From Perna viridis (Eukaryota), in NCBI GenBank assembly GCA_037379345.1, contig CM074516.1, positions 10,974,001 to 11,038,000 on the forward strand: a DNA stretch of 64,000 bases. Direction: 5' to 3'. This document shows, in pieces, positions 22,519 to 64,000 of this stretch. The stretch's first letter is position 1. Every line of letters starts with the position of its first letter. Under the pieces are notes generated by a model that searched no databases, was not told the origin of the DNA, and worked only from the letters and a program-made list of their open reading frames with translations. A program made the translations under genes and the position numbers.

Positions 22519-22922
22519 AGAAATAGAAAGTTTTTGACAGAGTTATTTGCCGTTGAAATGTTCCGATTCTGATGGTGCAAATAGTCAAATTAGACTTTTA
22601 CAATGATGAGTTTTTTCATACCATGTCTCACCCACTGCCTAATTCTTACAGAGACCGACACTTGATTTCTTATCCAACAATATGTAAATATGTGAACACA
22701 GGAGAGTTATAATGCATACATCAGTTCTGCTTTTCAATTGCTATCGACACATATTTATGTTTTTTCTTTTTGTTTTGCTTTTTATGGTTTGTTATTATTT
22801 GTTTTCTTTTTTGTGTTTTTTTTTCTTTTTTGTTTCCTGTGAAAATTAAAACCAATAACGACACTTAACCCTTAAAAAATCAGGACCACATAAAGTTCTA
22901 TGATAACACGAGTAACATATTT

Positions 22923-41056: not shown

Positions 41057-41068
41057 TGGTGCCGTGAC
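41057..41068 (+). promoter_or_regulatory. Primer-binding site complementary to tRNA-His 3' end
   Basis: TGGTGCCGTGAC, 6 nt after the LTR-terminal CA; matches the eukaryotic tRNA-His end ..GUCACGGCACCA. Confidence 0.8.
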
Positions 41069-41126
41069 AGTTCGTTCCTGAAAGTAAGTCGCTTTAATGT
41101 TATGTTAGATTTTGTTTTCTGTTACA

Positions 41127-42087: not shown

Positions 42088-42239
42088 AACTCAGTCAAAC
42101 TAAAGCTTTCTCTTTATTCCGGAAGCGATAAGGGGAAGAAAATACGTGTCAAGAAATTAAAAAAATTGAAGGGTCAAAATTTTAAAATTAATTTAGCGGG
42201 TACACCACGTTCCTGTTTATTCGAATTCAAAATCGTTAT

Positions 42240-43900
42240 CTCCGAACTCTTATCGACACAGAAGCAGAAATTAGTATTTTGAATAATAGAATTTTTAATT
42301 CTTTGAGAAATAAACCCCATTTGAAATTTGTTAGGGTGCATGTTCAAGGGGTTGACGGGTCTGCATTACATGTTCAAGGAGTTTGTGAACTTCAGTTTAA
42401 AATTGGCATGGAAATTTTGACACATCAATTTTATGTGGTTAAAAACGTAAATAGGAATATTATTTTAGGCAGGGATTGGCTTTCAAAATATGGGGTGAGG
42501 TTATATTATGATTTGCATTCTTTGAAAATTAATAGTTCATATGTACCTTTAGAGAACGACACGCGTATAGCTTCCATGGTACGATTGTCGGCTAGCACAG
42601 TTTTAAAACCTCAACGAGTTTATGTCTGTCAAGCTAGATTAAAGCATAACCCGAGTTTTAAAAAATGTCAGTTTATTCAAATAGAAGCTGCAGATGCAGG
42701 TTTTCTTGCTTCTCATCCGGGTATTATGTTAGGGAATAGTTTAGTTCAAATACGTCAAAGTAGACGTTTTCCACTCATGATTGCGAACAATACAAATCAA
42801 ACGGTACATCTTAGGCGTGGGTGTTGTTTGGGTTACGTTCATACAATTTCCGAGGAAACTATATCGGAAACGGACATGTCGAATTTTGTATCACGGGGCG
42901 AGCCGGATATAAATATTGAAATCAATGCGATTAGCAAATCTGAATTAGAAAAGCATGTCCAGGTGCCAGATGAATTTGGGGATCAAATTAATGAGTTGAT
43001 TATAGCTAATGAGGGTGTGTTCGCACAAACTGATAGGGATTTAGGTATGACTAAGACTTTGAAAATGTCCATTGATACTGGGGATCACCCACCAATTCGG
43101 CTCCGTCCTTAAAGGGTGCCATTGCATTATCGTCATGAAGTAGATGAGTGTATTGATAAAATGCTTGACGCAAATGTAATCAAAGAATTTGATTCACCAT
43201 GGGCTTTTCCTTTAGTAGTTGTAAAGAAAAAAGATGGGACTTTGAGAATTTGTTGTGATTTTCGGAAATTGAACAAAATTACAAAGACTAAGAGTTGGCC
43301 GTTGCCTTTGATAGACGATATTCTCTCGCTGTTAGGAAATGCAGTATATATGTCTTCTCTTGACGCCAGATCTGCGTATTGGGCAGTTGAATTAGATGAA
43401 GAGGCTAAGCAGAAAGCATCCTTCACATGCCCGCAAGGTGTATTTTCTTTTAACGTCATGCCGTTTGGACTTTGTAATGCTCCTTCTGTTTTTCAGCAGT
43501 TAATGTCTATTGTGTTAAAGGGTTGTCAAAAGTTTGCGATTGCCTATCTTGATGATATTCTAGTATTTTCTAGGTCGGCTGAAGAACACATGCGTCATTT
43601 ACAAATGATTTTTGATCGATTGCGAGAACACAATATTAGGTTGAAATTAAAGAAGTGTTCATTTTTGCAAAAAAGAAACTAATTATTTAGGATTTGTCAT
43701 TACAGAGACCGGTATTAAACTAGATTTACAGAAAGTAAAGGCAATTAGAGAATTTCCACCTCCAAAAACGGTAAAAGAGGTTCGAGCTGCTCTCGGACTT
43801 TTCAATTGGTATAGGCGGTTTTTCAGTGGTTTTTCTGAACTTGCTATTCCTCTTGTTGAACTAACCAAGAAAAACGTTTGTATGGTCTGAAGAACAACAA
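42240..43900 (+). pseudogene. Gypsy pol (protease-RT), truncated
   Basis: ORFs 42279-43112 and 43116-43682; SPWAFP, YLDDILVFS. Confidence 0.9.
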
Positions 43901-43973
43901 AAAGCTTTTGATTTATTAAAGTCCAAGTTATGCGCAGGTCCATTGTTAAATCACCCAGATGTGTCAAAAGATT

Positions 43974-44215
43974 GAATATACAACATGTTCAAATATATAT
44001 ACCATTCAATTATATAAGACACATCCATCAATCAATGTGAATCTTGACATAAACATTCTATGTGTCCAGTTTACCCGTACATGTTTACCCGTACATGCAT
44101 ATAATTCAATTTATAGTTAACATAGACAATATTAATTCTTAAAGTCATTATACATTCCTCCCTTTCTCAACAATAACAATTTAATCAATAATGTCTAAGT
44201 ACTGTCATATCATAA
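43974..44215 (-). repeat. Inverted copy of the LTR 5' part (40468-40708)
   Basis: Reverse complement match of ~240 bp with few mismatches. Confidence 0.9.
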
Positions 44216-44265
44216 TAGTAGGCGAGTGAAAATGCAGCTGTCAACAAGCATAATTCATATTGCAA

Positions 44266-46711
44266 CTTAATAATAATAATAAGAAACACAGTAAAAGCAA
44301 TAAGTCACCGCCACTTCGTGGTCGGCGACTTAATAACAAGTTTATAACATGTGGATGAAATTAACACTGCTTCCCAGAGGGGGCACCTTATTTTGGATGG
44401 CTGTCATTTTGAAAGGCATGCAGCCATCTGTAATGATAAAAATATGAAACTTTTTCGCACTTATATGGTTTTATATCTTTTACGTTTGGTAAAGATATCT
44501 CAAGTCTTTTTTCCTACATAAAGGAAAAAGATCAGAAAAATATAAAAAAAATCATTTTGTTCATTACCATGGCAAAAGATGAAATATCGATTCACTTTTT
44601 TGCATAACATTGTAGAGCTCGCCAAACTCTACCACCACACCAATTTTCAAGTTCCTGGCCACCTAGGTTTCAGTGATATCGCAGAAGAAACGGAGCAAAA
44701 AAGTAAGTCGCAAAACTTCATTTTAGCGACTTAATAAATAGTTATACCGATAATCATTGACATTATTACAAGCTCAACCACGTTAAAACCGTATAGAACT
44801 AAACAGTACATATACACTTTACCAGCAATTCTCAAAACAAAACAAAAGAAAAAAAAAAAAAAACAAATTAAAACAATAACAACCAATTACACGTGTCAGG
44901 TAGGTACGAAAAAAGCTAATGATGACACATTATTATACAGTGGCAAAGATCAAAACATGAGAGGTTTAAATGGAAATAACTTGGCTTACATTTTTTCTCG
45001 GTATTTTTGTTTTGTTGTTTCCTGTTTTTTGTTGCGCGTGTCCTTTTTACCTATACATATTTCATCCCTGGATGCATTCTTTTGATTTTGATTTTTGGAG
45101 TCTTGTTTCACTTGATCACGTTTGATATAAAGTGTATATGATTTCGATAGAAAAAAACTTTGAAAAAATGACAAAACCTCTTTTACATTTTAGACAAATA
45201 GCAAAACATTTTAAGTAACACTCTAGATAACCTCTACATAATCATGTGTTTAACAACTGACAGAAGTCAAATATTGTTACATACAGTAATAACTTTAGGC
45301 AAATTAATCTTGCAACAAAATGTATGCAAAATACAAACTTACAAATGGAATTTTGTGTGAAAAATGCAATGCACGAGTGATTTATCTTTGATTCGATTTT
45401 CATTGCCTCGTGACCACGATGTAAATCGTGAGTCATCTGCTCTATGCATCAATATGTTTCATACTATCAAGGCAAATAGCAACGGGAGAAGCAGATAAAT
45501 TTTCTCTGCTATTTGTTGAAAATAACCATTTATAAATTATTTGTAACAACTGAACAATTTGAAAACTGACAACCAAAATATAGAACTTCAAATACTCGAT
45601 TATATTCAGCACAGAACCATGGACGTCAAAATTGGAACAAACCCAATTTATACAGAGTACGCTTACTCATGGTTTTGGCGCCTTATCCCTACCTCTACAC
45701 AGCGACAACACGTGTTCAGAAACACAATCGATATAGATGTATTACCTTACTTTATCATTTTGCATCTTTTTATAGAAGCCGAGTGAGAGCTAGTTGACTT
45801 TAACTATGCATATCAATCTGATTGATACAACATCGAAAAAACGTGACGTACTAATTAAAAGGAGCTTAAAAATAAAGTTCTGCTTTCGATAAAAAAGAAA
45901 AAAAAACAAACAAACCAACAAACCAAAATAAATAAATTAATAAATAAATAATAAAAAATTAAATAGATAAAACATAAAAAAGTGTTAATTCCGTTTTCCA
46001 TATTTGTATACTTCATCACATTTATTTGTAAACTAGACAAATCTAGTACATGTTAGTGTTCACATGCAGAAAAGGAAAATACACTTACTTTAGTTTCTTT
46101 CTGTTACCTTTCATAGTGATAGGAGTACAGTCTATCATACTGTATTTATTTCTGCCGAACAACCAATCAAAATGTTAAATTTTGTTAAGGTGTTCTTACA
46201 TAATATATTTATTACATGCATGAAAATTATACAACCAAAGTAATGAAGTAAAAGGTCTTTAACAATTGTTAATAATCTCAGTTGGACATACCAAAATTAA
46301 AAATCAGATATAGGTTTGGCGATATTTGGCCACAGCTTTTATCGACAAATACTATATAAATAGTCACACAACATAGATATATGCCTAGATGTACGGTTAA
46401 ACAATGCACCGTGGGATACACAGATGTTTGTTGATTCTATATACCGTGGGTGCAAAGCAGTGAGCCAAACATTTTAATAATTAACTGTAAATGAAACTCA
46501 TCTCAACATATTTTAATCTCATTATGTAGAAAGCCAACTTTGACTTTTCCTATATCATTACCTGCTACATGGAAGATACGAAAATTAGGTCGATCTTCAA
46601 AAGTTCCTCATGAATCTAAGCTATTTTTTCACCTGCCTTATAACCATACCACTTCTTCCGTGCCACCACAAAGAGATATCTAAACAGCCTAATCCTACGT
46701 TTACACCTCCC
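44266..46711 (+). repeat. Segmental direct duplication, copy 2; ends at the Maverick insertion
   Basis: Matches 37141-39848 up to ttacacctccc. Confidence 0.9.
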
Positions 46712-46904
46712 ACTACAAAAGGGGTTGATCGGGGACCCCCCTTTCATATCTATTTATAGATCCAAGGGTAGATCTGAGGAACATAAGGATAATGAAGAGA
46801 TCGAAGATATTAAAATTACTATGCCTGAACAACTGTCAAACTTTATTTCAAACGATCAAACGATGATAGATAAGCGACAAAGTATTGTTAAATGGATAAT
46901 AGGA
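46712..46904 (+). repeat. Maverick left TIR
   Basis: 46776-46904 is the reverse complement of 63872-64000 (4 mismatches in 129 bp); the host duplicate sequence breaks at 46711. Confidence 0.9.
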
Positions 46905-47074
46905 ATGGTATTGTTAGCCATGATTTCAATCACATTAGGCATAACAAATAAAACTGTTTTGAAAGAGGTGGATTTTACATCAGATTGTATCAAAATTGCA
47001 TCTCAAAAGGGATACCAATATATTAATTTCACAAAGTAATCTTATGCATTCAAAAACATTTGAATCAATATCTT

Positions 47075-47209
47075 NNNNNNNNNNNNNNNNNNNNNNNNNN
47101 NNNNNNNNNNNNNNNNNNNNNNNNNNNNNNNNNNNNNNNNNNNNNNNNNNNNNNNNNNNNNNNNNNNNNNNNNNNNNNNNNNNNNNNNNNNNNNNNNNNN
47201 NNNNNNNNN
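47075..47209. other. Assembly gap (135 N)
   Basis: Run of N. Confidence 1.
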
Positions 47210-47224
47210 GTATTTGAGTAGAAC

Positions 47225-47473
47225 ATGAATTCGAACACGGATGAATTGTACAAATGCATCAACATTGATGACAAAGAAAATAAGATCAACTGGACGAACA
47301 TGGATGATACCACCTTTCAAATCTACGAACGTATAGTATCTACAATGTTTAATGACGGAATAATAAACTGGGGGCGAATACTAACCTTGTTTGTTTTTAC
47401 AAGGAAATTATGTCATGAGAATCCTCAATATTCAGAAAGGTTATGGGCTGTGTATTACAGATCAGTAAAATGA
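47225..47473 (+). CDS. Small Bcl-2-family-like protein (BH1 motif), Maverick-encoded
   Basis: IVSTMFNDGIINWGRILTLFVF matches the BH1 consensus (LFxDGxxNWGRIxxxFxF). Confidence 0.7.
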   Translation: MNSNTDELYKCINIDDKENKINWTNMDDTTFQIYERIVSTMFNDGIINWGRILTLFVFTRKLCHENPQYSERLWAVYYRSVK

Positions 47474-47656
47474 TTAAAATAGTATCTTGTAGGAAAAGAC
47501 ATTTTACATCAGTGTAGAAAAAGGGAGACCTTATAACATTTTGTAATTTTATACTTAGTATCCATGATTAGCGATATCGGTACCGTTATATAATATTTAC
47601 CAACCGTGACACTCTTTGGGTATAAATAAGCTTTTGGACAACATTTATCTTTACAA

Positions 47657-48518
47657 ATGGGTTTCGACAGAGAAAAAACAATTTTTAACTGTGGTTGTTA
47701 CTTAGAATACTATTCACACGATTTCTTCAATTATCAAAAGGATCATAGATTTTTCAACGTCTGTGGTAAACATCCTAATCAAAAAGCTGCAATGGAAATT
47801 CAAAAGTCGCCACATGAATTAGGAACCGAACAAAACCGAGCAGCAATGGAAATTCAAAAGTCACCACAGGTATTAGGACCCGACCAAAACGCACCCTTTG
47901 ACAAGTCTGATGACATATTTACATGTTACGATGGAAGATGTTTCATCAATCTACTTGATAATTTATATGTGGTCGCCAAAGAATTCAATAAAAAAAATGC
48001 TAATACACATTAGACACTTTGACGAAACAGGACAGAATAAAATTCCTACAAAAAAAGGGGTAACATTTAATCTATCCAGATGGTTATTATTGGAGAGTAA
48101 AATGGATGACATAAACACCCTGTTTCTGAAATCACTGTCAGGCGATGAGATGGAAACATACCGACTACATTTAGGAGGAGGTGTTCACGTCACAGTTGAT
48201 CCAAAATTTCCAACGGTAGATATACGACACTTTTGGAAACCATCGGACTCAGATAAACCAGTGCCAACAAAAAAAGGAGTGGCTCTCAACAGAAAGAAAT
48301 GGATTCGTTTGTGCGACACAGTACAAGTTATGAGAGAGTTTGTACCTGAACTGAATACAACGGCTGTTTGTTTCGATTCACATCTCAACGATCTTGAAGC
48401 ATTATCATGTAAAGAATGTTTCCCCTTTGAAAAAGAAGAGGAATGGAAAGAACTTTTACCAAATCTAGAAGAAGACGACGCCGACCATACACAACCTTTA
48501 CCAACAGAGGACAAGTAA
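47657..48518 (+). CDS. Tandem PC4-like ssDNA-binding protein with a +1 frameshift in the A8 run at 47990-47997
   Basis: Two repeats: LYVVAKEFNKK/MLIHIRHF..PTKKGVTFNLSRW and VHVTVDPKFPTVDIRHFW..PTKKGVALNRKKW; TATA (tataaataa) at 47621; AATAAA at ~48577. Confidence 0.75.
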
Positions 48519-48729
48519 TAATAATACAAGACGTTGTTCATATATCTGACATTTTAATTTTTATCATTAGTTAGTCAATAAAATAATGTTTCCTATTTTT
48601 TTGTGTTGTTGTTTTTATAATGATAGAGGTAAAAACAAAACAAACCAAAATAAATAAAAGCTCGTGAAAAACCAACAGTTACTCATTTGAACATCCATTG
48701 ACCCAACCGGTACCACAAAAAAAAAATGT

Positions 48730-49944
48730 ATGAAAAATAAAGAAAAATTCAGTTTGAAAAAAAAAAACACCGAGATGACGTATCAGGAGAAACGTAAATA
48801 TGTTCTTAAAATATGGACTGACCCTGCACATCCTGCAACATTTACAGGGCCTGAAAAACTATATACTGTTATACGTAAAGAGGGAAAATACAACATTGGT
48901 TTAGGAACAATTAAGAAAATATTATCTAATAAGGAGTCTTACACTGTGCAGAAACCAGTGCGACGAGCATTTGCACGGAACAGAGTTATTGTCAGTGGTC
49001 TCGATGATCAATGGGACATGGATTTAGCCTCCATGGAAAACGTAGCTCAATACAACGACAACGTTAAATTTTTACTGATAGTCATAGATATTTTTTCAAG
49101 ATATTTAATGGTCAGGCCTTTAAAAAATAAAAAAAGTTCTTCAGTAGCCGATGCCATTAAAAACATTCTAAAAGACCACAAAAACAGGAGACCCCTTGTT
49201 ATACGTGCGGACCAGGGTGGTGAATTCAAATCAGAAGTGAAAAAAATCTTAACAAAACAGCATATTCATATTTTCTACACACATAACTCTACTATAAAGA
49301 GTTCATACGCTGAGCGTGCGATACGTACACTGAAAGGGAAAATTTATTCTTTTTTCATGGAAAAACAAACATATAGATATATAGACGTTCTGCAAAAGAT
49401 CGTTAGTAGCTATAACCACTCCCCTCATCAATCTTTAGGGGGATATACACCATCATCTATTAACAAAACTAACGAAGACGAAATGAGATACGTGCAATAT
49501 ATTGTGCGAATAAAAAAGATGAAAGGAAAACCAACTAACACACCTATAAAACTAAAAGCAAGTACTCAAAAGAAAAAGAAGAAGAAGAAACCGTTTTACA
49601 AATTTAAGCTGGCCGATTTCGTAAGAGTATCACATTTAAAAAGAACATTTGAAAAAGGTTATCAAGAAAAATGGACTATGGAATATTTCAAAATCGTGAA
49701 GAGATTCAAAAGGGGAAACAAAGATATGTACATGATAGCAGACATAGACGGTGACAAAATCAAGGGTACATTCTACAGATACGAATTACAAAAAATAGAT
49801 AAAACCGAAACCGATACCTACAAGATTGAAAAAATAATCAAACGGAAGAAAATAGATGGTACAAAACATGTTTTGGTAAAATGGTTGGGTTGGCCAGTGA
49901 AATTCAACTCATGGGTTCCAGAGGCCGATGTTAAGGATATATAA
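48730..49944 (+). CDS. Retroviral-like (rve) integrase with C-terminal chromodomain
   Basis: WDMDL, IDIFSRY, ADQGGEF, AERAIRTLK (DDE); chromodomain YKIEKII..LVKWLGWPVKFNSWV. Confidence 0.95.
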   Translation: MKNKEKFSLKKKNTEMTYQEKRKYVLKIWTDPAHPATFTGPEKLYTVIRKEGKYNIGLGTIKKILSNKESYTVQKPVRRAFARNRVIVSGLDDQWDMDLASMENVAQYNDNVKFLLIVIDIFSRYLMVRPLKNKKSSSVADAIKNILKDHKNRRPLVIRADQGGEFKSEVKKILTKQHIHIFYTHNSTIKSSYAERAIRTLKGKIYSFFMEKQTYRYIDVLQKIVSSYNHSPHQSLGGYTPSSINKTNEDEMRYVQYIVRIKKMKGKPTNTPIKLKASTQKKKKKKKPFYKFKLADFVRVSHLKRTFEKGYQEKWTMEYFKIVKRFKRGNKDMYMIADIDGDKIKGTFYRYELQKIDKTETDTYKIEKIIKRKKIDGTKHVLVKWLGWPVKFNSWVPEADVKDI

Positions 49945-49983
49945 CATTAATCTAATACTATATTCCATACATTTGAGGCAGAG

Positions 49984-50409
49984 ATGAGCTTGAGAATGGT
50001 ACTATCTTCCGAGGACGGAAAGAGTTTTAATCCTAGTAATACCCCATACGACTTTAGAATTAAACTGAATAGGGCTTTACAGTTTGATGGTTATTGGGAA
50101 GTGGCTTTAACAGAAATTAGAATTTCCCAGGAAGATCAGAAAGAAGACACCGCATTGTTCGTGTGTTCGGATATTTGTCAAGACAGTATTGTCGGAACTT
50201 CAGAACAGCCTTTATTAAGAAGAGTATTTTTTGACGACGTAAATGGAAAAAATGTAGTATATACGCATCCGTATTACGTACCGCTAAAATTGAGAGATGT
50301 TCAACAAATTCGTATCTATATTAAAGAAGGAAGCAGCGCTGATGCTTTATTTTTGAAAAAGAAAGTGACGGTGACACTTCACTTTAAAAAATTCCCCTTT
50401 CTTTCGTAA
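49984..50409 (+). CDS. Minor capsid (penton)-like single jelly-roll protein, compact
   Basis: SS...FNPSNTPYDFRIKL..GYWEVALTEI, FVCSDIC..SIVG...PLLRRV, PYYVPL, VTLHFK: Polinton penton pattern. Confidence 0.75.
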   Translation: MSLRMVLSSEDGKSFNPSNTPYDFRIKLNRALQFDGYWEVALTEIRISQEDQKEDTALFVCSDICQDSIVGTSEQPLLRRVFFDDVNGKNVVYTHPYYVPLKLRDVQQIRIYIKEGSSADALFLKKKVTVTLHFKKFPFLS

Positions 50410-50416
50410 AACAGAA

Positions 50417-50953
50417 ATGTATGGTCAGTCCTACGTGTCAAATCCATCTCTTTGGCAAAACTTCTATAAGAATATGTCGGAAAATAAATTTAATGCATAC
50501 AAATATAGGAAAAATTAAAAAAAAAAACAGACAGGCAGAGGCATGTATGGAAGATACAGAGGGTCCTACATGATTCCAGTCAACCAAAACACAACCTCAG
50601 ACTCTACTCCTGTGGTTAAAACATCCGTGGTTTCGCCTATTGCGGCTGCGGAGAAAAGGGTAGAATCGCAAATGGAAGAAGAAAAGAAATTACAAAAACC
50701 TCGTGTGAAATTAATACAAAAACGTATAAAAAGAAAAAAACAAGACAAACACATCATTAAGAAAAAAGCTGACAAGAGGAGAACATCTTTACGATCTTCA
50801 GCAAAAGTAAATAAAAAGACACAGAGGAAAAAGGTCAATTCTAAGAAAAAACACAAGATATCAAGCTCAAGAAAATCAAAACCTCACAATAAGAAGCTTC
50901 ATTTTTATGATAGTGTTTGGGATCTTCCATTGATCAAGAAGAAAAAGAAATAA
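50417..50953 (+). CDS. Basic DNA-packaging/core-like protein; in-frame TAA at ~50516 between A-runs (ORF track start 50543)
   Basis: ATG 50417 is in frame with 50543; QTGRG adenain-type site; K/R-rich C-terminal half; sits between penton and MCP. Confidence 0.55.
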
Positions 50954-50954
50954 A

Positions 50955-52268
50955 ATGTCATTTTTAAGTGATGAGAATAAGGAAGTCGGCCAACCTATGG
51001 AACTGTCAATTTTCGCCTCTCCTCCGAACCAGGTTGCCATTGATAAAATTAACTACACCGAAGAAAGACCCATTTCTAACTTGTTGAACGATGGAACACC
51101 CGTTGAAATCGTAGTTTCCGGTGCTGGTAGCGATTATATAGATTTAAGAAAGAGTCGATTATATGTCAAACTTCAAATTGTAAAAGGAGATGGTTCCCCT
51201 CTTGTTGCAAAAGAAAAAACAGGTATCATCAATTTACCTTTGCAAAGTATGTTCTCACATATCGATATATACATGAACAACAAACTGGTCTCAGTGAACT
51301 CAAATAATTATCCGTGGAAAGCATATTTGAAGGTGATACTATCATCGGGTAAAGATGAACAGGAGTCGCAACTGCAAAGCCAATTGTTTATGAAAGACGA
51401 TGATCCAATGGACTCCGTCACACTGAATGCAGGGTTTGTTAACAGATACGAATTTACCAAAGAATCCAGAACTTTTGAATTGGAAGGAAATTTGTTAGAA
51501 GACGCCTTGAATTTGGAAGGAAAGTTGTTGATTAACGGTGTGGACATATACATGAAATTATTCAGGTCGAGTAGTCCGTTTTTATTGATCTCAGGGGAGT
51601 CAACACCTAACTACAAAGTTAAAATCCTAGACGTCTATTTTAAAACAGCCAGAGTAAAATTAGACCCTGGTGTCATCTTGAATCACAGAAATCAAATACG
51701 TGAAACTCCAGCAAAGTATGTCATTAACAGAAGCAATGTCATTCAAAACGCCATACCAAAAGGCTCTACCGAATTTTACTGGGACGGAATGTTTCCAAAG
51801 GCCATACCATCCAAGTTAGTTATTGGTCTTCTATCGCAGACGGGTGTTAACGGAGATTACACTAAAAATCCATTTCATTTTCAACATTTTAACATGAAGG
51901 AGGTGTCATTGAAAGTTAATGGGGTAGAAATATACGGAACACCTCTCAAGCTAGATTTTGGAGTCAACAGAAATTACAGTACACCGTATGTGAGACTTTT
52001 TGAAATAAGTGAAAAATGGAATAAAGATACAGGGTTAAACATATCTTATAGTGATTTTGGGGCAGGATATTGCCTGCTGGCTTTTTCTTTGGATCCTAGT
52101 TTAGACTTTCAAGAAGATTTCCTCAATTTAGTTAAACATGGCAACGCTAGATTAGAAATTAGATTTGGTACCGCTACTACTGAGACTATAAATTGTCTGT
52201 GTTACTATCAATCACAAGCCATTTTAACTGTAGACGAGTCCAGAGAAGTAAGGATCATAGAACCATGA
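50955..52268 (+). CDS. Major capsid protein (double jelly-roll, PY)
   Basis: ELSIF..PPNQVAI, YIDLRKSRLYVK, LQSMFS, YPWKAY, LINGVD, NPFHFQHFN, GNARLEIRF: Polinton MCP pattern, 437 aa. Confidence 0.92.
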   Translation: MSFLSDENKEVGQPMELSIFASPPNQVAIDKINYTEERPISNLLNDGTPVEIVVSGAGSDYIDLRKSRLYVKLQIVKGDGSPLVAKEKTGIINLPLQSMFSHIDIYMNNKLVSVNSNNYPWKAYLKVILSSGKDEQESQLQSQLFMKDDDPMDSVTLNAGFVNRYEFTKESRTFELEGNLLEDALNLEGKLLINGVDIYMKLFRSSSPFLLISGESTPNYKVKILDVYFKTARVKLDPGVILNHRNQIRETPAKYVINRSNVIQNAIPKGSTEFYWDGMFPKAIPSKLVIGLLSQTGVNGDYTKNPFHFQHFNMKEVSLKVNGVEIYGTPLKLDFGVNRNYSTPYVRLFEISEKWNKDTGLNISYSDFGAGYCLLAFSLDPSLDFQEDFLNLVKHGNARLEIRFGTATTETINCLCYYQSQAILTVDESREVRIIEP

Positions 52269-52735
52269 ACACAGATCAATTAAAAGGAATGTTAAACAGA
52301 TACAAATGCCTAAGAAACATACTTATTGACATCACAGCAATCAATGTTTTGCCAAAACGCACATCTTCCATTTATCCTCAGTTATATATCATCAATACAG
52401 ATCCTCTACCCAACCCTGGAAAGCACTGGGTGTGTGTGATTTTATACAATTATGGACAGCTCGATTATTTTGACAGTCTTGGAAATCCGGCACAATACTA
52501 CGGCAACGATCTGCATAATTTTTTTAAAAGGAACGGTCAGAAACATAATAATTCTGTGCAAAGACGTATACAATCGCTCTATTCGGATCTATGCGGTCTT
52601 TATGTGGTATATTTTGCAGTGATGAGACTATGTTTACATTTTTCAATCAGAGATATTTATCAGAGTTTCCATATCAATGACTTTAAGCAAAACGATAAGT
52701 TTATTTATATGTATTTTTCACAAGAGTTTTTTTAG
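52265..52735 (+). CDS. Adenain-like cysteine (maturation) protease
   Basis: NTDP...PGKHWV, YFDSLG, IQS..SDLCGLY (H-D-Q-C); ATG 52265 overlaps the MCP stop (ATGA). Confidence 0.92.
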   Translation: MNTDQLKGMLNRYKCLRNILIDITAINVLPKRTSSIYPQLYIINTDPLPNPGKHWVCVILYNYGQLDYFDSLGNPAQYYGNDLHNFFKRNGQKHNNSVQRRIQSLYSDLCGLYVVYFAVMRLCLHFSIRDIYQSFHINDFKQNDKFIYMYFSQEFF

Positions 52736-52795
52736 TAAATAAAATGATAATTCAAAGAATACTGGTTTTATTTTGTAAACAAACATCCCATTGTA

Positions 52796-53449
52796 ATGAC
52801 GTCGAAAAAAACACTCCTGCCGTTTTTCTCTCCAACTACTCTATGCATCGTAGGTCCGACCCAAAGTGGGAAAAGCATGTTCACCAAGAAATTGGTGGAA
52901 AACGCAGTTTCCATGTTTACCCTTCCTCCGGAGAAAATATTGTATGCCTATTCTGAACACCAAAAAATGTTCGACGAAATGCAAAACATACCAAATTTGA
53001 CATTTCATGAGGGGGTGCCGAGTAAACAATGTTTAGAAGAGCTAGCTCAGGATACAAAACACTGTTTAGTTATCCTTGACGACTTAATGTCAAAAATAGT
53101 TCAATCCGAAGAAATTTTACACCTTTTTACAATATCAAGTCATCATAAAGGAATTTCAGTGGCGTACTTAAGTCGGAATCTTTACACGCAGGGCAAATTT
53201 GCAAAGACTATTGCCCTCAATTCGGCAAATTTTGTTTTATTTCGTAATCCTAATATGAGACAAATCTTAACGTTTGCCTCTCAAATACTGCCAGGACAGA
53301 CCCGCTTTTTCTTAGATAGTTTTACAAAAGCTACCAAGGAAATGTATTCTTATCTCATGGTGGATTTGTCGACACATAGTAATAGGGAGTATATGCTCCG
53401 ATCTGGAATTTTTCCGGAAGATACATGTATTGTGTATAAACCTCAATAA
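52796..53449 (+). CDS. Packaging ATPase (FtsK/A32 family)
   Basis: Walker A GPTQSGKS, Walker B VILDDLM, SHHKGIS, LFRNP, YSYLMVD. Confidence 0.93.
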   Translation: MTSKKTLLPFFSPTTLCIVGPTQSGKSMFTKKLVENAVSMFTLPPEKILYAYSEHQKMFDEMQNIPNLTFHEGVPSKQCLEELAQDTKHCLVILDDLMSKIVQSEEILHLFTISSHHKGISVAYLSRNLYTQGKFAKTIALNSANFVLFRNPNMRQILTFASQILPGQTRFFLDSFTKATKEMYSYLMVDLSTHSNREYMLRSGIFPEDTCIVYKPQ

Positions 53450-53487
53450 AAATTATAAAATATCAAAAAACTTGGCATTGTTAAAAT

Positions 53488-53796
53488 ATGAGTCGTCGAA
53501 TGAAGACGCATGCCGCATTTATTAAATTTTTACATAATTCAACTGTGAAACAAAGAAAAGCAATTTTATCCAATCTTACTGACAAGGAAATTAATCTCTT
53601 GTCAGAAATTGCATTAAACATATTCAAGGGAGTATTACCTCACAGAGAAAACTACGTCAAGACATTAAAACCTTACAAATTGATCATTGCACGGCTTGCA
53701 CACAAATCCGAAAGCGGAGCTCAAAAGAAAAAACTCTTACTTCAAAATGTTAAAGTCGTTCCAAAACTTTTGAGACCTGTTCTTAAATACCTATGA
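53488..53796 (+). CDS. Conserved Polinton small basic protein
   Basis: KQRKAIL..INLLSEIALNIFKG..LKPYKLIIARLA..KKKLLLQ pattern; TATAAAA at ~53455. Confidence 0.7.
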   Translation: MSRRMKTHAAFIKFLHNSTVKQRKAILSNLTDKEINLLSEIALNIFKGVLPHRENYVKTLKPYKLIIARLAHKSESGAQKKKLLLQNVKVVPKLLRPVLKYL

Positions 53797-54077
53797 TGGC
53801 AAAAGAACTAGTCCTCATACCCAGAAAGAAGTACGAAGAACTGTGCAATCATGACAAAAAAAGTGACATTAATAAAAACACGGAACCGACAGAAAATTTT
53901 AAAAATTCTCAATCTGAGGATGTTGATAAAAAACCGGAACCGATAAATGATTCAGATGATCGTACTACTGTGCAGTCGGGGGAAGGGTTCGTCGTGAAAC
54001 AACGATCTATAGGCAGACTTCTAGGAATCTCCAACAGGGTATTAAAAAAGACAAATATACAATGGCTAAAATTTTAA
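53793..54077 (+). CDS. Maverick hypothetical protein (94 aa)
   Basis: MAKELVLIPRKKYEEL N-terminus, QSGEG motif, terminal WLKF; ATGA overlap with the upstream gene; AATAAA at the stop. Confidence 0.6.
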   Translation: MMAKELVLIPRKKYEELCNHDKKSDINKNTEPTENFKNSQSEDVDKKPEPINDSDDRTTVQSGEGFVVKQRSIGRLLGISNRVLKKTNIQWLKF

Positions 54078-54135
54078 TAAATATGTATATTTTTGTACAA
54101 ATAAAACAAAAGTTTGAGAATGTTACAGTTTTGTC

Positions 54136-56159
54136 TTATTTTGTGCAATATCCATAAGGTAAAGTTGAGAGGTTGCTTAGTAGACGTCTCTTAGTGTAGA
54201 CCATTCTGAAATCTTGTGCTCGATTCTGTTGTATAGTTTTCTTTTTAGCGCTAAGCGAGAAATTTTCCGAGGATTTGTTACTGTAATACAATGTTTGGTC
54301 TTTGCTACGACAATTTCTTTCATGGTTGAAAAGTTTATCAGGTCAGAGTTCGTCTTACTTTCCAAAGAAAAACCTCTGACCTTGCAAACTTGTCGCTGTG
54401 ATTTAGTTAAAAATGCATACGATTTAGGACCACTGGAAACAAATTTCGTGATGTGCCCATCCTCTGGGACTATTTCGTTTGTCAATTCGCCCAAATAATT
54501 ACCGATGGGTAATGTGTTTGTTATTGTTCGATCATTATCCACAAAAATGATTGAATCTGTATCCACGTACAGTGCTCTGTCTTGAGTCACTTCTAACAAT
54601 TCGTAAAGTCGTAATCTTGCCATACAGGTTGTGAAACTGGCCAAGAACACATTTGTTTTAAAATCTACTGGCAAGAAAGACGAATCGTCGGCATATTCCA
54701 GATGAATCATGTCATCACTAATGATGTGAAAATCAGAAACTTCTTTTGTAGAGTCACAAAGTAATTGGAAGAATTTATCCGCTTCAGTATCGTAAAAAAA
54801 CTTTGTTTGACTCATGTTCAAGCGCTGTCCAAACTTTCCCCAAAAACTGTTTAAACAAATTTTGGCCAAAGTACGTAATCCGGGATTCTTTTTTATCTGC
54901 TCATATTCAAGTTGGATTTTTTCCTTTTCCGCATATTTTGCAATATAATCTAATTTCTCTACTTCAGTTTTACATTCGCTAGGAAATCCCGATGCCTCTT
55001 GTTTTATTTTCAAAAACATATTCACATATCCGGCAAACAAACCTCCAGACGCTGTTTTTCGGTCGTATTCGCTTGTGTTCTTAAAATGATAGACTTCATA
55101 GAATTTCAATATTTTGTAACCTTTTGACACGGCCAATTCCAATTCAGGAGTACACCATGTTCCAATAATAGCTCTGTCGTTGTCAGGACATGTACACCTA
55201 TCTTGAAATTCTATTTCTGCACATCGTTTGCAAAGCGGAAATTTGAGTTTTCCGTCTGTTGTCGTATACGGTAAAACAGGGTGAAACAAATTTTTCGGAG
55301 GTAACACTTTCACCTTGGCCAACCCAAAATATTGTGACAGGTCTGCAAAATTGGAGGTGATGATTTCAGGATGTCCACATACATATTTTGCGTACTTGTT
55401 TACACTAGGGTACAAACTACAAAGAAAGAAAAAAATTAAATAGCCATTACAATTTTAATCTGAATGAATTTATAACACAGTAAAGTCCCGTTCCCATGAA
55501 CAGATTTAAGTAGGGATAAAAACTTTGCACATATGCAAATTTCCACCCAGGGGTATTTTTTATTCAAATTTGCTCCATGTGACAGTACCTAGTCCCTAGT
55601 CAGACCAGATGATGCAAGTTCATATTTGCACATGAGTAAATTTACTCCTAGGGTATATTTGGTAATGTGAACGGATAGTAAAACTTGCACCCTATCTTAA
55701 TGAAAAAATCACTGTGATATCAAGCTTTTATACCAAGTTAAGACTAAACACCCCTGAATAAATTTGTTCAAGGGAACGGGGCTTAAGTCTCAGTTTTAAT
55801 CAAATTAAAAGAACGTATTTACCTGGTGTAATCGAAATACTCAATGGTCTCTCCGGGTTTTTCTACCTCATGGTACAACTTTATGGCATTGGTCCGTCCT
55901 CCAAAAAAACTCTCTCTGGGATGTAGACGTTCTACAATGTCCAAGGTTCCAACAAATTCAGCCATTTCCTCATCCTGTTTGATATTTTTAAGATATTCGT
56001 GCTCCCAAATACATACGTATTTGTATCCTATGCGTTTTAGGTACATCTCCTTTCTTTTCGTTGCATAATATAACTCGTTCATTGTATGTTTTGTTAAAGG
56101 ATTTTTCGTTGTAGTCCTGTTTTCAGGGAAACAATGTTGGCATCCATGAACAACACACC
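54136..56159 (-). CDS. Protein-primed family B DNA polymerase, spliced (exons 56159-55823 and 55416-54136), 5' exons not found, 1-nt frameshift at ~54211
   Basis: GCVVHGCQHC and YVCIWEHE (Vsr-like insert), FFGGRT, YFDYTS|LYP, KICLNSFWGKFGQ, YVDTDS, GPKSY, KVRGF; true C-terminus YTKRRLLSNLSTLPYGY lies in the shifted frame. Confidence 0.9.
55417..55822 (-). other. GT-AG intron in pPolB motif A
   Basis: ..TAC ACC AG|gtaaat ... tttttttctttctttgtag|T TTG TAC CCT; removal restores DYTSLYP in frame. Confidence 0.9.
55484..55783. mobile_element. PIF/Harbinger-type MITE inside the pPolB intron
   Basis: TIR agtcccgttcccatgaacagattta / taaatttgttcaagggaacggggct; TAA on both sides (55481-83, 55784-86). 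Confidence 0.8.
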
Positions 56160-56638
56160 CTGAAATTGAAGTGAATACTTTTAATTGTGGTTATCCTACT
56201 TTTGCGCCTTTGCCGCGTCAGCTCATGCAATTTTACACACTTAGACCGTCCGCTTCTCGAATACCGCGCCGCGTCTCGAATGTCGCACCTCTCCCCCATC
56301 GCCGCCGTCGCCGCCGCCGTCCCTTCTTTTTTTCAAAATATGCAGACAGAGTCCTGGGAACATATGAAGAGACAGCCTCCATGATAAATATGGTCAATTT
56401 CGGTACAGAGGATAAGCAAAGCTGTTTATGAAAATAAATCTGTACGCATATGTTTATTGACTAAAAAAAGACTCCTATTATTTATTTTTGAAAAATCCAT
56501 CCATAAAAACATATCAGCAAGTCCATATTTTTTTCTATAACAGTTTTTAAAATGTGGAGAAGAAAAAAAAACACCTTATATAATATAAAAAAAACTATAA
56601 ATCTTATTGTCTCTGGTTGGTTTCACTTCATAGTTTCA

Positions 56639-56830
56639 TTATCCTGTCTCTTCTTTCAGCCAGATAATTGTTGAAGACAGTATCAATATACATCTCCTCC
56701 TCTGTCTTATGTAAAAGTTCAGTTTGTTTTGTGCATTTATGATCTTTTTATTGATTATTGTAATGGTTCCGGTTATGTTTTGAAGTTCAGCTTCATTAAG
56801 TGAGACCTTCTTTACCCACCGAAACCAACA
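56639..56830 (-). pseudogene. Diverged paralogue of the orphan gene's terminal exon
   Basis: VKKVSLNEAELQNITGTITIINKKIINAQNKLNF versus IKKVSLEEAEIQNLTGTITIINKKIINAHTKMNY; the shifted frame continues DTVFNNYLAERRDRIMK. Confidence 0.6.
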
Positions 56831-57128
56831 TTTCAAACCAGAGGACCAAACCCAAAAAATACAATAGACGGCTTCTCTAGAGATATCCGTCAAGGTGACT
56901 ATTATGGTCAATAGAGCAAAATTTGTTTTATGGAAACTAATTTGTATGCATCTGTGACACAGATACTTCCTAACAGGAAAAAAAAAGAAATCTGGTTTAC
57001 TATACCATTTATTTTAAAAACCCTACCCTATATATACATAAGTTGAATATATCCCACAATTTTTAATACAAAAATGTACAATAAATCCATTTCTATTCTA
57101 AGTTCATATTGATGGCTCCCTATATGTC

Positions 57129-59498
57129 TCATTTGTTTATTTTCATCAACAGCTTTTCTCTTCTTTCTGCAATAAAGTTATTGAAGAGCGTGTTTTCATA
57201 GATGTCCTCTTTTGTTGTTTTCAATAGCTCTTTTAAGTAATTCATTTTTGTATGAGCATTTATTATTTTTTTGTTAATTATAGTAATTGTCCCTGTTAAA
57301 TTCTGAATTTCTGCTTCCTCCAGGGATACCTTTTTTATCCTGCAAAAAAAAAGATACATATTTCAGTACGGTGAGTGATTTCGGCTCCTTGGAGCCTCTT
57401 GTTTTCAAATACAATAAATTTACCAAAGAGCGGTTTATTTTTTATAACAGCTCTAGTACCTGACAAATGCCATACTTTTCTGTCGTGCATAAGTATACGA
57501 AGGTTTAAAGGTAAAGCCTTGATCTATTTCAAAATAACATATGTGATTCAGTTTGAAATATTTCTTTAGCTATTATACTTTTCCATCTATTTATTGACAT
57601 AGTTGACATAGTTGAAAAATCTTTTAAAAAACCGGCAAAGAAAAGGGAATGACTCCCATATCATTTCAAATCTGATTTTGAAAGTTTAATTTTACTTGCG
57701 AGCTACATGATTTAATTATTAATAACAAAGTATAATTTGTTATCATAAATTTCATAAAATACTTTTGTTGCTGGTAAAACCCAGTTTACAAAATTATAAA
57801 TTTCATAAAATTATATTATAACGCTATTTTTCATAAAATACAATAAACTTACTTTACATGTATCATCTGAGGTCTCTCTGTTTCTTTCTCTGTCTCATGT
57901 TTCATCCGGGGTCTCTCTGTTTCTTTCTCTGTCTCATAGGGTTCTCCTTGTCTTTTGCGTTTACTGAGAAAAAAATAGTTGTATGTTTTACATCTTTTTT
58001 TAACTAAAAATTATTCAATCGTGTGAATTTGAAACAGATCGCATTTGAGTTTTTTTTCTAGTTAACCTTTCCCTCTTCTCCCCTTTAAAAAAATATCACT
58101 TTGTATGTCGCAATAGTCTTTCTTGTTCCAGGCTTTTTTGTCTACTGCGAGGTTGTATATCCATATACATTTTTTAAGAGTATGTGAAAAAAAAAATAGC
58201 TGTATGTTTTACATCTTTTTTTTAACTAAAAATTATTCAATCGTGTGAATTTGAAACAGATCACATTTGTGTTTTTTTTTCTAGTTAACCCTCCTCTCCC
58301 CCTTTAAAAAAAAATACATCACTTTGTTTGTCTCAATAGTCTTTCTTCTTCCAGGCTTTTTCGTGTACTACGAGGTTGTATGTCCTTATACTTTAGAGTA
58401 CGTGAATTTAAATGTGATTTTTAAACATATTGTATTTGAGTTATTTCCCCTTCCAAGTTGATACATAGATTATTAGAAGTTCTTACGGTGTTTTGTGAAA
58501 ATCTGTAGTGTCTTGCATCGTTGTTTCTCTATAAAATAATAATTGAATATCACTTTCATGACTTTGTATAGACATTTAAATATACAAGATTGCTACAGTA
58601 GCCGTATGCGCAATGTCATGCAAAAAAAGAAGAAAAAAAAAACATCCATAGTGGCTGACTTTTGAACTTGTCCCCATACAGTATAAATTTGGCTTTTTCA
58701 ATAATGTTGGTAGAGCGCCACTGATAAGTCTTGCATAGACGAAACGCGTGTCAGGCGTAGCAAATTTTAAAGCCTAGAACTTTGTTGTAGTTTTTTGTTT
58801 CAAACTTCCGTGTCGGTTAGCTCTGCTGGTGGTGTTTCAATTCCCCGACGAGGTTAGCCCACTCCGGCATCAAAACACTTTTGTGTTTACGAACGCATCA
58901 AAGCTTTGAAATTATCTGTTTAAATTTCAAAATTGAGACATAGGTTGATCTTAGGCCTAATTAGTGTTTGGCTTTTTGGAATTTTGTTGTATGCTTTGTT
59001 TCGATCAAACCCCCATAGAGAATAATATGTAAGTGCTCACGAAATGTAAAATACCAAATATTTTAATGTGGGATATTATTGAAGTATTTAATAAAATTTG
59101 TTCACGTCTCCTTGTCTTAATATCTGACTAACGTTTTTTTTGTTTCATACAAGTACAACAGTATCATTAGTTGAAATTTATATAAAAAAAATGAAATAAA
59201 GTATTCAATAGCCTTACAGTGTCTGTTCAAAATCCTTTAATGTGTCATCTCCTTTCATAGAAGCTTCCCTATAAAAAAAAATTCGTATAATTGCATTTAC
59301 ACGAAATTGATAAAATTTATTTTAGGCGACACCAAATCACTTTAAATTAAAGTAGGATTGCGATTTTTAGCAAAAAAAATTCTCATCAACTATTCCTTCT
59401 CTTACATAAAAATCATCACATACTTCTAGGTAAAAAAATAAAAGTGAAACAAATAATAAAATAAAGTTAACTTACAGTTGGATCATTCTCTGTGCCAT
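57129..59498 (-). CDS. Five-exon orphan gene inside the Maverick (145 aa)
   Basis: Exons 59498-59476, 59268-59218, 58528-58487, 57963-57853, 57339-57129; every donor is gtaag, every acceptor is a T-tract plus AG, all phase 2; 438 nt open. Confidence 0.7.
58713..58760 (+). ncRNA. Degenerate type-I hammerhead ribozyme (Penelope pLTR relic, ~58680-58900)
   Basis: cgcc-a-CTGATAA-gtct tgcat agac-GAAA-cgcgtgTC-a-ggcg; stems I and II pair; core CUGAUGA reads CUGAUAA. Confidence 0.65.
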
Positions 59499-62400
59499 TT
59501 TCAACAGTGTTGTTCTTGATTATTTTAAAAGCAGTCCTTTTATAGCACTGAAAAATACCACCCTGAATATATTTCTGATAATTTATATATCTTATCTCAC
59601 TAAAGTGGTAACCATAGAGTCTTCAAAAATCTGTTTATGTCTGTTAATGACCCTCCTCATTGGTTTTATTTCTACTTTATTATTTTGTCTTTAAATAGTA
59701 ATTTTTTTTGGTTTTTTTTTTTGTTTTTGTTTTGCATCAAAAGTTTGTTTTTCAATTGTTTTTTACCTATCTGTAAACGCCCTATAATAATTTAAGTATA
59801 TTATCACTCCAAAGTTGTAATGAGCGATTTCTGATTCAAACATTTGTAATTCTGTTAAGTTTTTTTATGGCTTTTGATCTTAATTTATTCAAAATACAAA
59901 AACGATGATCAATACTATTATTGTAGCAGCATAAACAGTTATCTAATTATTTAACGACTAACGCTTTTCTGTTCGTAATGTGTAAAGTGATCGACCTTGG
60001 GGGTAAACCTTTGATTTCTATAATACTCCCTAGAACTTTTGAATATCGTGAGAAGTTAGTAACAACTATTTCATATATGACAGTATGAAGAATTTTAGTA
60101 AATTTTGATATTTTATACAAAATCTTAAATATTTTTCTTTTTTTTTTTAAGATTAGTATTATCTAATGCTATGAAAGTTGTAATAAAATCAAACAACACA
60201 GATATAAAATATTTAATATAAAAAAAACTACTTTAAACACGAAATTTCATTAGATGACATCTAGTGGCGAGGTACTCTTGGGGCGATTAATACCACATAT
60301 AAAATGAGAACCGAAAGGTTGCTGTAACTCGATAACATTAAAAAATATATGTAGAAGAAGATTAGACTTATTTTCGTTCCATCTATTTTGGTACTTAAAT
60401 GTTGATTTTCTTCATTAAGTAAGGAAAAAAAATGTCAGAAATGTTTAAATTGTAACTTATTACACTTTTATAATTGGTGATTTAGATTAAGGCCTTATTT
60501 TTTTTTGGAAAAAAAAGGTAATTTTTATAAGAATTTTCTCGCAACTGTTGATCAGTGACTTGAAATTTTGTTGAAGATTAGATTTATTTTCGTTCCATCT
60601 ATTTTGGTACTTAAATGTTGATTTTCTTCATTAAGTAAGGAAAAAAAATGCCAGAAATTTTTAAATTGTAACTTATTACACTTTTATAATTGGTGATTTA
60701 GATTAAGGTCTTATATTTTTTTGGAGAAAAAAGGTATTTTTTTTTAAATTTAATTAAATTACCACTATGGGCAGGTATTAAAAAATTGTGTTAGGTTAAT
60801 GAAAATAATGTTTGTTTAAACATTAAATTCTATTGGGTTATTCCCATTTCACAGAAGTGCCTTTTATTTTGTTTGTTGATGTAATATTACCTTTGTTTAT
60901 TTTTTTTAAATTGTTTATTGCATTTGTCAAATACTCAAGTATTGAGTTTGATATTGATATAGAGAAATTATTTCATGTTTTTTTTTCACATTAGGTAGGT
61001 GCTTAAATGTTTAATAGTTAGATTTCTTTTTTTTTTGTTGGTGCAATATTACCTGCATGTATGTTTTAAATTTTTAAATGTTAATTGCATTTGTTATAAG
61101 ATATTGATTTTATAATTGTTGTACATATTTGTTTTTTGTTTTAAATAAAAAAAGAAGAGAGTGAAAAAAAAACAAAAAAAACAGGGGGTATCTTTATGCT
61201 CAAGTTGTGAATATTACAGATTTGACATTTAGATGCCTCCATGTGGATTTTGTTAAATATCAACTTTTAGGCCTAATTAGTGTTTGGCTTTTTGGAATTT
61301 TGTTGTATGCTTTGTTTCGATCAAACCCCCATAGAGAATAATATGTAAGTGCTCACGAAATGTAAAATACCAAATATTTTAATGTGGGATATTATTGAAG
61401 TATTTAATAAAATTTGTTCACGTCTCCTTGTCTTAATATCTGACTAACGTTTTTTTTGTTTCATACAAGTACAACAGTATCATTAGTTGAAATTTATATA
61501 AAAAAAATGAAATAAAGTATTCAATAGCCTTACAGTGTCTGTTCAAAATCCTTTAATGTGTCATCTCCTTTCATAGAAGCTTCCCTATAAAAAAAAATTC
61601 GTATAATTGCATTTACACGAAATTGATAAAATTTATTTTAGGCGACACCAAATCACTTTAAATTAAAGTAGGATTGCGATTTTTAGCAAAAAAAATTCTC
61701 ATCAACTATTCCTTCTCTTACATAAAAATCATCACATACTTCTAGGTAAAAAAATAAAAGTGAAACAAATAATAAAATAAAGTTAACTTACAGTTGGATC
61801 ATTCTCTGTGCCATTTTCAACAGTGTTGTTCTTGATTATTTTAAAAGCAGTCCTTTTATAGCACTGAAAAATACCACCCTGAATATATTTCTGATAATTT
61901 ATATATCTTATCTCACTAAAGTGGTAACCATAGAGTCTTCAAAAATCTGTTTATGTCTGTTAATGACCCTCCTCATTGGTTTTATTTCTACTTTATTATT
62001 TTGTCTTTAAATAGTAATTTTTTTTGGTTTTTTTTTTTGTTTTTGTTTTGCATCAAAAGTTTGTTTTTCAATTGTTTTTTACCTATCTGTAAACGCCCTA
62101 TAATAATTTAAGTATATTATCACTCCAAAGTTGTAATGAGCGATTTCTGATTCAAACATTTGTAATTCTGTTAAGTTTTTTTATGGCTTTTGATCTTAAT
62201 TTATTCAAAATACAAAAACGATGATCAATACTATTATTGTAGCAGCATAAACAGTTATCTAATTATTTAACGACTAACGCTTTTCTGTTCGTAATGTGTA
62301 AAGTGATCGACCTTGGGGGTAAACCTTTGATTTCTATAATACTCCCTAGAACTTTTGAATATCGTGAGAAGTTAGTAACAACTATTTCATATATGACAGT

Positions 62401-63587
62401 ATGAAGAATTTTAGTAAATTTTGATATTTTATACAAAATCTTAAATATTTTTCTTTTTTTTTTTAAGATTAGTATTATCTAATGCTATGAAAGTTGTAAT
62501 AAAATCAAACAACACAGATATAAAATATTTAATATAAAAAAAACTACTTTAAACACGAAATTTCATTAGATGACATCTAGTGGCGAGGTACTCTTGGGGC
62601 GATTAATACCACATATAAAATGAGAACCGAAAGGTTGCTGTAACTCGATAACATTAAAAAATATATGTAGAAGAAGATTAGACTTATTTTCGTTCCATCT
62701 ATTTTGGTACTTAAATGTTGATTTTCTTCATTAAGTAAGGAAAAAAAAATGTCAGAAATGTTTAAATTGTAACTTATTACACTTTTATAATTGGTGATTT
62801 AGATTAAGGCCTTATTTTTTTTTGGAAAAAAAAGGTAATTTTTATAAGAATTTTCTCGCAACTGTTGATCAGTGACTTGAAATTTTGTTGAAGATTAGAT
62901 TTATTTTCGTTCCATCTATTTTGGTACTTAAATGTTGATTTTCTTCATTAAGTAAGGAAAAAAAATGCCAGAAATTTTTAAATTGTAACTTATTACACTT
63001 TTATAATTGGTGATTTAGATTAAGGTCTTATATTTTTTTGGAGAAAAAAGGTATTTTTTTTTAAATTTAATTAAATTACCACTATGGGCAGGTATTAAAA
63101 AATTGTGTTAGGTTAATGAAAATAATGTTTGTTTAAACATTAAATTCTATTGGGTTATTCCCATTTCACAGAAGTGCCTTTTATTTTGTTTGTTGATGTA
63201 ATATTACCTTTGTTTATTTTTTTTAAATTGTTTATTGCATTTGTCAAATACTCAAGTATTGAGTTTGATATTGATATAGAGAAATTATTTCATGTTTTTT
63301 TTTCACATTAGGTAGGTGCTTAAATGTTTAATAGTTAGATTTCTTTTTTTTTTGTTGGTGCAATATTACCTGCATGTATGTTTTAAATTTTTAAATGTTA
63401 ATTGCATTTGTTATAAGATATTGATTTTATAATTGTTGTACATATTTGTTTTTTGTTTTAAATAAAAAAAGAAGAGAGTGAAAAAAAAACAAAAAAAACA
63501 GGGGGTATCTTTATGCTCAAGTTGTGAATATTACAGATTTGACATTTAGATGCCTCCATGTGGATTTTGTTAAATATCAACTTTTAG
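58951..63587 (+). repeat. Near-identical 2.3-kb tandem duplication (58951-61270 / 61267-63587)
   Basis: Offset 2316-2317 bp; 'ttag' microhomology at the junction; each unit has an internal ~160-bp repeat at ~220-bp spacing. Confidence 0.95.
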
Positions 63588-63871
63588 ATGTATAAAGACT
63601 TTTCTCTATGTGATGACAACATGTTTGAAAACAAAGGGTGTTTAATTATTCATGCATGATGGATGTTTTTAAATGTATTTAATATGTCAAGTAGGTAGGC
63701 CATAAAATTAACATTGTTTATTTTATATAGTTAAACAAACCATTGAGTGGCATCTTTATGTTCAGGTTGTCAAGATTGCAGATTTGACATTTAGATGTTC
63801 TCATGTACATTAACATATTAAATGTTGGTTTCTGTCATAAATAAAATGTGTTAAAGTAATACTTGAAGTAC

Positions 63872-64000
63872 TCCTATTAACCATTTAACAATACTTTGTC
63901 GCTTATCTATCATCCTTTGATCGTTTGAAATAAAGTTGGACAGTTGTTCAGGCATAGTAATTTTATTATCTTCGATCTCTTCATTATCCTTATGTTCCTC
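63872..64000 (-). repeat. Maverick right TIR (partial, runs off the window)
   Basis: Reverse complement of 46776-46904. Confidence 0.9.

Follow-up and report, generated by a model that had tools for sequence, protein, structure and literature searches.

Described Polintons and the Perna viridis element

Intact vertebrate Polintons, also called Mavericks, are intronless and have a mean length of 16.9 kb in the part of the published account used here (PMC8097293), which describes elements of about 17 kb carrying pPolB, integrase, major capsid protein (MCP), minor capsid, protease and ATPase genes in two converging modules with accessory arms, with the ATPase encoded on the same strand as pPolB and 6-bp motifs at the ends; 96% of the copies are defective. 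In a 64,000-nucleotide stretch of Perna viridis contig CM074516.1 (positions 10,974,001 to 11,038,000; the window, to which all coordinates refer), we analysed a Polinton element at 46712–64000 (17,289 bp, its right side cut by the window end) that resembles the Mavericks in gene set, converging modules, accessory arms and size and, like most of their copies, is defective. Unlike them, it has two introns in pPolB, its ATPase gene is co-oriented with the capsid genes, and no end motif was seen. An earlier note on the window had described a near-complete, fairly recently inserted endogenous polintovirus with unusual accessory genes, possibly of an undescribed lineage. Our analysis indicates that the element is very probably a defective integrated copy, a fossil, of a bivalve, probably mussel-family, Polinton clade with inherited spliceosomal introns in pPolB.

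Two further described groups are comparable. The adintoviruses of the Alpha PolB class share with the element a PF03175-type PolB, an rve integrase, hexon and penton-like proteins, a protease and an FtsK-like ATPase, as far as the main text of PMC8502044 goes; neither 'PC4' nor 'splic' occurs in that main text, supplements aside. Their PolB has an N-terminal OTU domain, and the corresponding exon is absent from the window. The pPolB2-VSR Polintons of molluscs and marine nematodes (PMC10748475) share the PF03175 polymerase, a VSR-like segment before motif A and, in part, mollusc hosts; by motif only, the element would be placed in this subgroup. The paper mentions introns twice, and the passage available does not concern spliceosomal introns. 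Introns have been reported in other Polinton-like elements: introners in those of dinoflagellates (PMC11957031) and group I introns in those of cryptophytes (PMC12220804). Our literature search, outside which lay Repbase, subscription papers and the Starrett supplementary maps, where such features may already appear, found no description of inherited spliceosomal introns in the pPolB of an animal Polinton.

Introns in the polymerase gene

The pPolB gene lies on the minus strand, matches PF03175 (E 3e-15) and has 1329 long homologs. Its last exon (54145–55416) is separated by intron 2 (55417–55822; 406 nt, GT–AG, phase 2), which splits motif A, from a middle exon of 337 nt (55823–56159) that runs from the C-terminal half of the VSR-like domain to motif A. 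Homology to pPolB begins abruptly at an acceptor at 56160, the 3′ end of intron 1 (56160–56330, minus strand), whose site lies in the VSR-like domain and whose donor and upstream exon are absent from the window. The N-terminal half of the VSR-like segment is lost, and the GCxxHGC segment is present with a weak match to REase_MTES_1575 (E 0.07); the JGI name of one homolog is very-short-patch-repair endonuclease. Intron 2 contains an element of about 300 bp with 26-nt inverted ends (about 55483–55784), and sequencing run X1 holds a joint that skips 359 nt of the intron, most of the inserted element.

A Mytilus relative (66% identity) has introns at both of these codons, and oyster-type relatives (about 60%) have one at the first. 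The window acceptor is matched in codon and phase by GT–AG, phase 1 introns of the metagenomic contigs L001 and L002 (MCP 55% identical), which are 120 and 140 nt long; these contigs have no intron 2. Among seven unspliced gene calls of the Mytilus cluster, two stop at site 1, one stops at site 2 and one resumes just before site 2; none reads through, and the breaks in the calls match the frame breaks of the window. The NCBI gene models already splice the pPolB introns, and four long Mytilus models align continuously across the sites. The Mytilus models VDI57140.1, XP_071138573.1 and XP_076079967.1, with 'F54H12.2-like' MCPs, share both intron positions, are full length and, by identity, form a family distinct from the window element. 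Because the same codon positions recur in relatives, both introns are, on sequence grounds, judged to be inherited and not damage that followed insertion. Intron 2 had been considered as a disabling insertion, a candidate that was rejected on finding the same break in the Mytilus gene calls. The earlier note was thus right to speak of intron-containing genes, and the introns matter more than it supposed, since they lie in the polymerase itself.

The polymerases of the window, Mytilus, L001 and L002 fall into a single clade of seven rows (SH-aLRT 99). Gene models of Mytilus are the closest named relatives of the element (MCP 78%, pPolB 66%). As to an undescribed lineage, no near-identical named record was found, Repbase being outside the comparison. 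L001 and L002 have the same gene order from PC4 to pPolB as the window. No relative was found in IMG/VR with the MCP, the MCP alignment or the Mytilus pPolB as query. GTDB gave only two short contigs, L009 and L010, both of which carry Polinton capsid modules in assemblies of Solemya gill symbionts and are probably host contamination.

Several observations weigh against the reading of an inherited-intron clade and a genuine locus. In three ENA proteins of this clade the reading continues across both intron sites, and the clade itself comes from a quick tree of 62 rows with no published pPolB2 reference. The distribution of the introns is therefore patchy; for intron 1, either an old origin with loss in one branch or two separate gains at one site would fit. 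Depth on the core genes is near zero in an RNA run save for poly-A artefacts (19% of the run; the individual may differ), and no spliced joint on the element is found among the rows shown for RNA run X21 and RNA-guess run X18; no RNA run is listed among those with the sampled words of the element. The right terminus and the 6-bp target-site duplication expected there lie outside the window. Among the listed read contigs (1426 further pieces lie beyond them), none links the 56.2–57.1-kb segment to the middle exon and none bridges an assembly gap of 135 N at 47075–47209. A mis-join at this gap, which the earlier note had raised, is nevertheless disfavoured because read depth is similar on both sides and a repeat arm lies to its left.

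Elsewhere in the sample, members of the other clusters examined also read through both sites, and no real intron-type end of an open reading frame (ORF) occurs among 61 unspliced-source members of seven other clusters or sets. A regex match in P0462 was rejected as such an end, as it ends in read-through sequence. Intron 2 is limited to the mussel branch in this sample. A GC-rich, hairpin-like GGCGGCG stretch is found in intron 1 of L001 (9843–9962), of L002 (9170–9309) and of the window (56160–56330); unusual for AT-rich introns, it may be a conserved signal. In L001, a pyrimidine-rich acceptor at about 12926, just before the pPolB start codon, hints at a further 5′ intron.

A longer history can be proposed only tentatively. 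One pPolB intron would have been kept since before the split of mussel-type and oyster-type elements, and the second gained in motif A in the mussel branch; replication would depend on host splicing, an active clade would be scored as dead by intron-blind screens, and the present copy might be a polymerase-less form spread in trans.

Loss of the polymerase 5′ exon

Full-length homologs (1468 residues) align to the window pPolB only from residue ~930, and the C-terminal ~540 residues remain. None of 120 homologs matched the missing part in 56300–64000 at E<0.01 by tblastn, and none matched it elsewhere in the window; a profile built on the 650 residues upstream, able to recover 5 of 5 held-out homologs, gave no score in any frame of the 64 kb. 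The alignments thus indicate that the first ~930 of ~1,470 residues, a 5′ exon of ~2.8 kb, are lost from this copy. The exonuclease and priming regions of such polymerases reside in this missing N-terminal part. In the last exon, the reading frame shifts within 54213–54255.

Together with a frameshift in the tandem-PC4 gene and a stop in the core-protein gene, described below, the truncation and frameshift of pPolB bring the coding lesions to at least four. With its polymerase 5′ exon lost and further lesions present, this copy cannot replicate itself. The description as near-complete therefore fails, and a fairly recent insertion was overstated: no working polymerase is encodable, although ten sequencing runs from three studies contain the family at high identity, each with at least half of the sampled words. 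Nor is length a good sign of completeness. The 17,289 bp include a tandem duplication at 58951–63587 (plus strand, period 2316 bp, 99.96% identical), which duplicates exons 1 and 2 of a predicted orphan gene and roughly masks the lost pPolB exon, and 17.3 kb was dropped as a mark of completeness.

Read evidence and alternative explanations

Two of the ten runs, X1 and X4, have coverage in all 30 bins of 46000–61260. In both (2 of 2 DNA-type runs examined), a contig joins right-arm sequence to the repeat, inverted, at 46904, and the AT-rich right arm therefore belongs to the element. The 56.2–57.1-kb segment is present in both runs, from two studies, with one difference. Its contig depth is below that of its neighbours (82.7 against 215–343 and 8.0 against 13–22), as would follow if other sequence takes that place in other copies; contig depth does not measure copy number, and the window may itself derive from X1.

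The main X1 contig over 54080–54551 (depth 305) is gapless against the window, so that several copies there may have the C-terminal frameshift. This would suit a non-autonomous family, in which intact helpers copied, several times and in trans, a form lacking the polymerase, with virion genes and near-normal length kept for packaging: the 2.3-kb duplication and the 0.3-kb intron insert nearly offset the lost ~2.8 kb, and 17.3 kb is near the Maverick mean given in the part of PMC8097293 used here. We consider such a family unlikely, since the reduced depth of the 56.2–57.1-kb segment in both runs is that of one locus, the tandem duplication is not doubled in the depth of either run (with the same reservations about depth and about X1), and a virion module under selection would not be expected to carry the core-protein stop and the ATPase departures.

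The repeat is cut by the window end, no canonical motif marks the left end, and an acceptor without a donor must once have had one. All three would be compatible with an element that is larger and intact rightward, with an intron 1 of many kb, the 129-bp repeat internal and the pPolB 5′ exon beyond 64000. This is very improbable: intron 1 is only 120–140 nt in relatives, the L001 accessory arm of at least 3.3 kb upstream of the pPolB start matches the window layout, and the other lesions stand regardless. That assembly errors caused the breaks and the duplication in a locus that is really intact is scarcely credible, since runs of two studies contain the 56.2–57.1-kb segment with a single difference, the C-terminal pPolB stretch aligns to X1 without gaps, and no such error can account for the absence of a 2.8-kb exon whose place is taken by other sequence present in the reads, even if the PC4 and core-gene breaks sit in A-runs, the X4 contig over 47725–48233 has one gap against the window, and the duplication, near-perfect and not seen in depth, may by itself be of this kind.

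Ends of the element and the virion module

The left end (46712–46904, plus strand) interrupts a host repeat at 46712, and another copy of that repeat continues differently. The inverted repeat is demonstrable only for its inner part, 46776–46904, against the right arm at 63872–64000 (minus strand, cut by the window end); recomputation gave 125 of 129 identical positions, in agreement with the four mismatches counted before. The element opens with ACTACA, and none of six screened hexamers, end motifs such as (AGT)2, (AG)3 and (AC)3A, occurs within 44000–46900; the outer repeat may have been deleted, or the end motif may be a variant. A small ORF of 90 codons with a hydrophobic stretch (46767–47039, plus strand) begins in the repeat, runs past its inner edge and has no Pfam match at cutoff.

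As the earlier note had it, and as ORFs and domain matches bear out, the integrase, penton-like, MCP, protease and ATPase ORFs are open and co-oriented on the plus strand and converge on pPolB. The integrase (48730–49944) has an rve core and a C-terminal chromodomain, both above Pfam cutoffs. It is followed by a penton-like minor capsid candidate of 141 aa (49984–50409), which has no Pfam match and is 46–48% identical to ORFs at the same position in L001 and L002. The basic core-protein-like gene (50417–50953, plus strand), a reading of 180–181 aa in those two contigs, has an in-frame stop at 50516–50518 in the window copy. The MCP (50955–52268) is predicted to be a double jelly roll; its structure model (pLDDT 78) has the mavirus, PBCV-1 and Sputnik MCPs as best matches (E 5e-15), which supports the assignment as a capsid protein of this type and with it the identification as a polintovirus with a virion module. 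The cysteine protease (52265–52735) has His/Asp/Gln/Cys motifs and a weak profile match to the African swine fever virus (ASFV) S273R protease (E 0.04). The A32-like packaging ATPase (52796–53449) has Walker motifs and matches Pox_A32 below cutoff (E 3e-4), and differs from both L001 and L002 at two motif positions. Two small conserved ORFs of 102 and 94 aa (53488–54077, plus strand) are syntenic in L001, L002 and L003.

Accessory genes

The Bcl-2-like ORF (47225–47473, plus strand; 82 aa) has a BH1-type core that is clearly matched, as had been claimed (PF00452, E 1e-9). An 88-aa homolog at 85% identity suggests that the short length is a family trait and the natural size. The structure model has four helices, and its fold matches are all to the Bcl-2 family but weak (E 0.2 or worse); no Bcl-2 match occurs in the ten relative loci examined.

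The tandem-PC4 gene (47657–48518, plus strand) does contain two PF02229 stretches, as had been noted, and its product is likely to bind single-stranded DNA, but the gene is frameshifted: ORFs of 118 and 202 aa are a single gene broken near 47996–48002, the upstream frame being matched by 14 of 150 homologs, five of them at E<0.001. Tandem PC4 occurs at the same position in both relatives long enough to show it (L001 and L002) and has 947 relatives at E<=0.001, and it was rejected as lineage-specific. Adintoviruses already have Bcl-2 homologs in some members, and IAP homologs too, in the portion of PMC8502044 used here. For these reasons, the accessory set is ordinary for the group and no lineage marker, and does not bear out the claim of unusual genes. 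Several PC4 relatives bear an N-terminal CARD, which the window copy does not. The CARD is fused to tandem PC4 in the related Polintons L001 (1551–2627), P0243 and P0244, a case of a death-fold domain on a probable viral single-stranded-DNA-binding protein.

A spliced orphan gene had also been proposed. The model, chosen by eye, has five exons on the minus strand (57129–59498; exons 59498–59476, 59268–59218, 58528–58487, 57963–57853 and 57339–57129); its donors read GTAAG, its acceptors are rich in pyrimidines, and the internal exons measure 51, 42 and 111 nt. An automatic exon scan recovered two of the three internal exons and gave three candidates on the minus strand and none on the plus strand, with 0.46 candidates in shuffles and 1.1–1.35 per equal length of host flank. 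The gene is plausible, with modest support from the scan. No RNA support was found in the read runs examined, and the last exon has no homolog in an atlas search at 0.9, in Pfam or in the ten relative loci. A degenerate copy of that exon, 67% identical, lies at 56647–56817, and 35 nt of a host repeat with very high copy number lie in the last intron (57370–57404).

Predicted life cycle of working members

From Polinton and adenovirus biology, host RNA polymerase II would transcribe the genes of working members, and the spliceosome would remove the pPolB introns. Replication of the linear DNA by pPolB would be protein-primed at the inverted ends, with displaced single strands coated by the tandem-PC4 protein, and new copies would be inserted by the chromodomain integrase. 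MCP, penton and core protein, together with the ATPase and protease, would form a particle. Damping of apoptosis is the probable role of the short Bcl-2-like protein, and the CARD of relatives probably acts on cell-death signalling. Gene content, order, lesions and intron positions are observed directly; splicing, the biochemical roles and the particles are predictions.

Surroundings in the window

The Polinton junction lies in the second of two host segments (37317–39848 and 44341–46711; 93–95% identical) that flank a Gypsy-type LTR retrotransposon at 40465–44217. This has gag–pol remnants and a tRNA-type primer site near 41056 and is cut off after the reverse transcriptase; in place of a direct LTR, it ends in a 244-nt repeat of its own 5′ end, inverted and 99% identical. 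Another Gypsy element, richer in GC than the first, lies at 30683–34633 (minus strand) and has frames for integrase, RNase H and protease. Several Penelope/LINE-like reverse-transcriptase repeat fragments occupy 20903–27481, and the Pinctada pPolB gene model P0090 contains a fused piece of the same repeat type. At 1121–1744 (minus strand) is a host exon with a possible resemblance to a tuftelin-interacting/splicing-factor type protein.

Implications

This copy itself is an ordinary decayed insertion. Surveys score Mavericks as intact only with uninterrupted core ORFs, and a large survey by its own statement ignored introns (10.1101/2025.04.19.649669); the content of such viral regions is highest in bivalves. 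A clade with inherited polymerase introns would be under-counted as active, and would be an example of a viral replication gene in which the gain of an intron can be dated.

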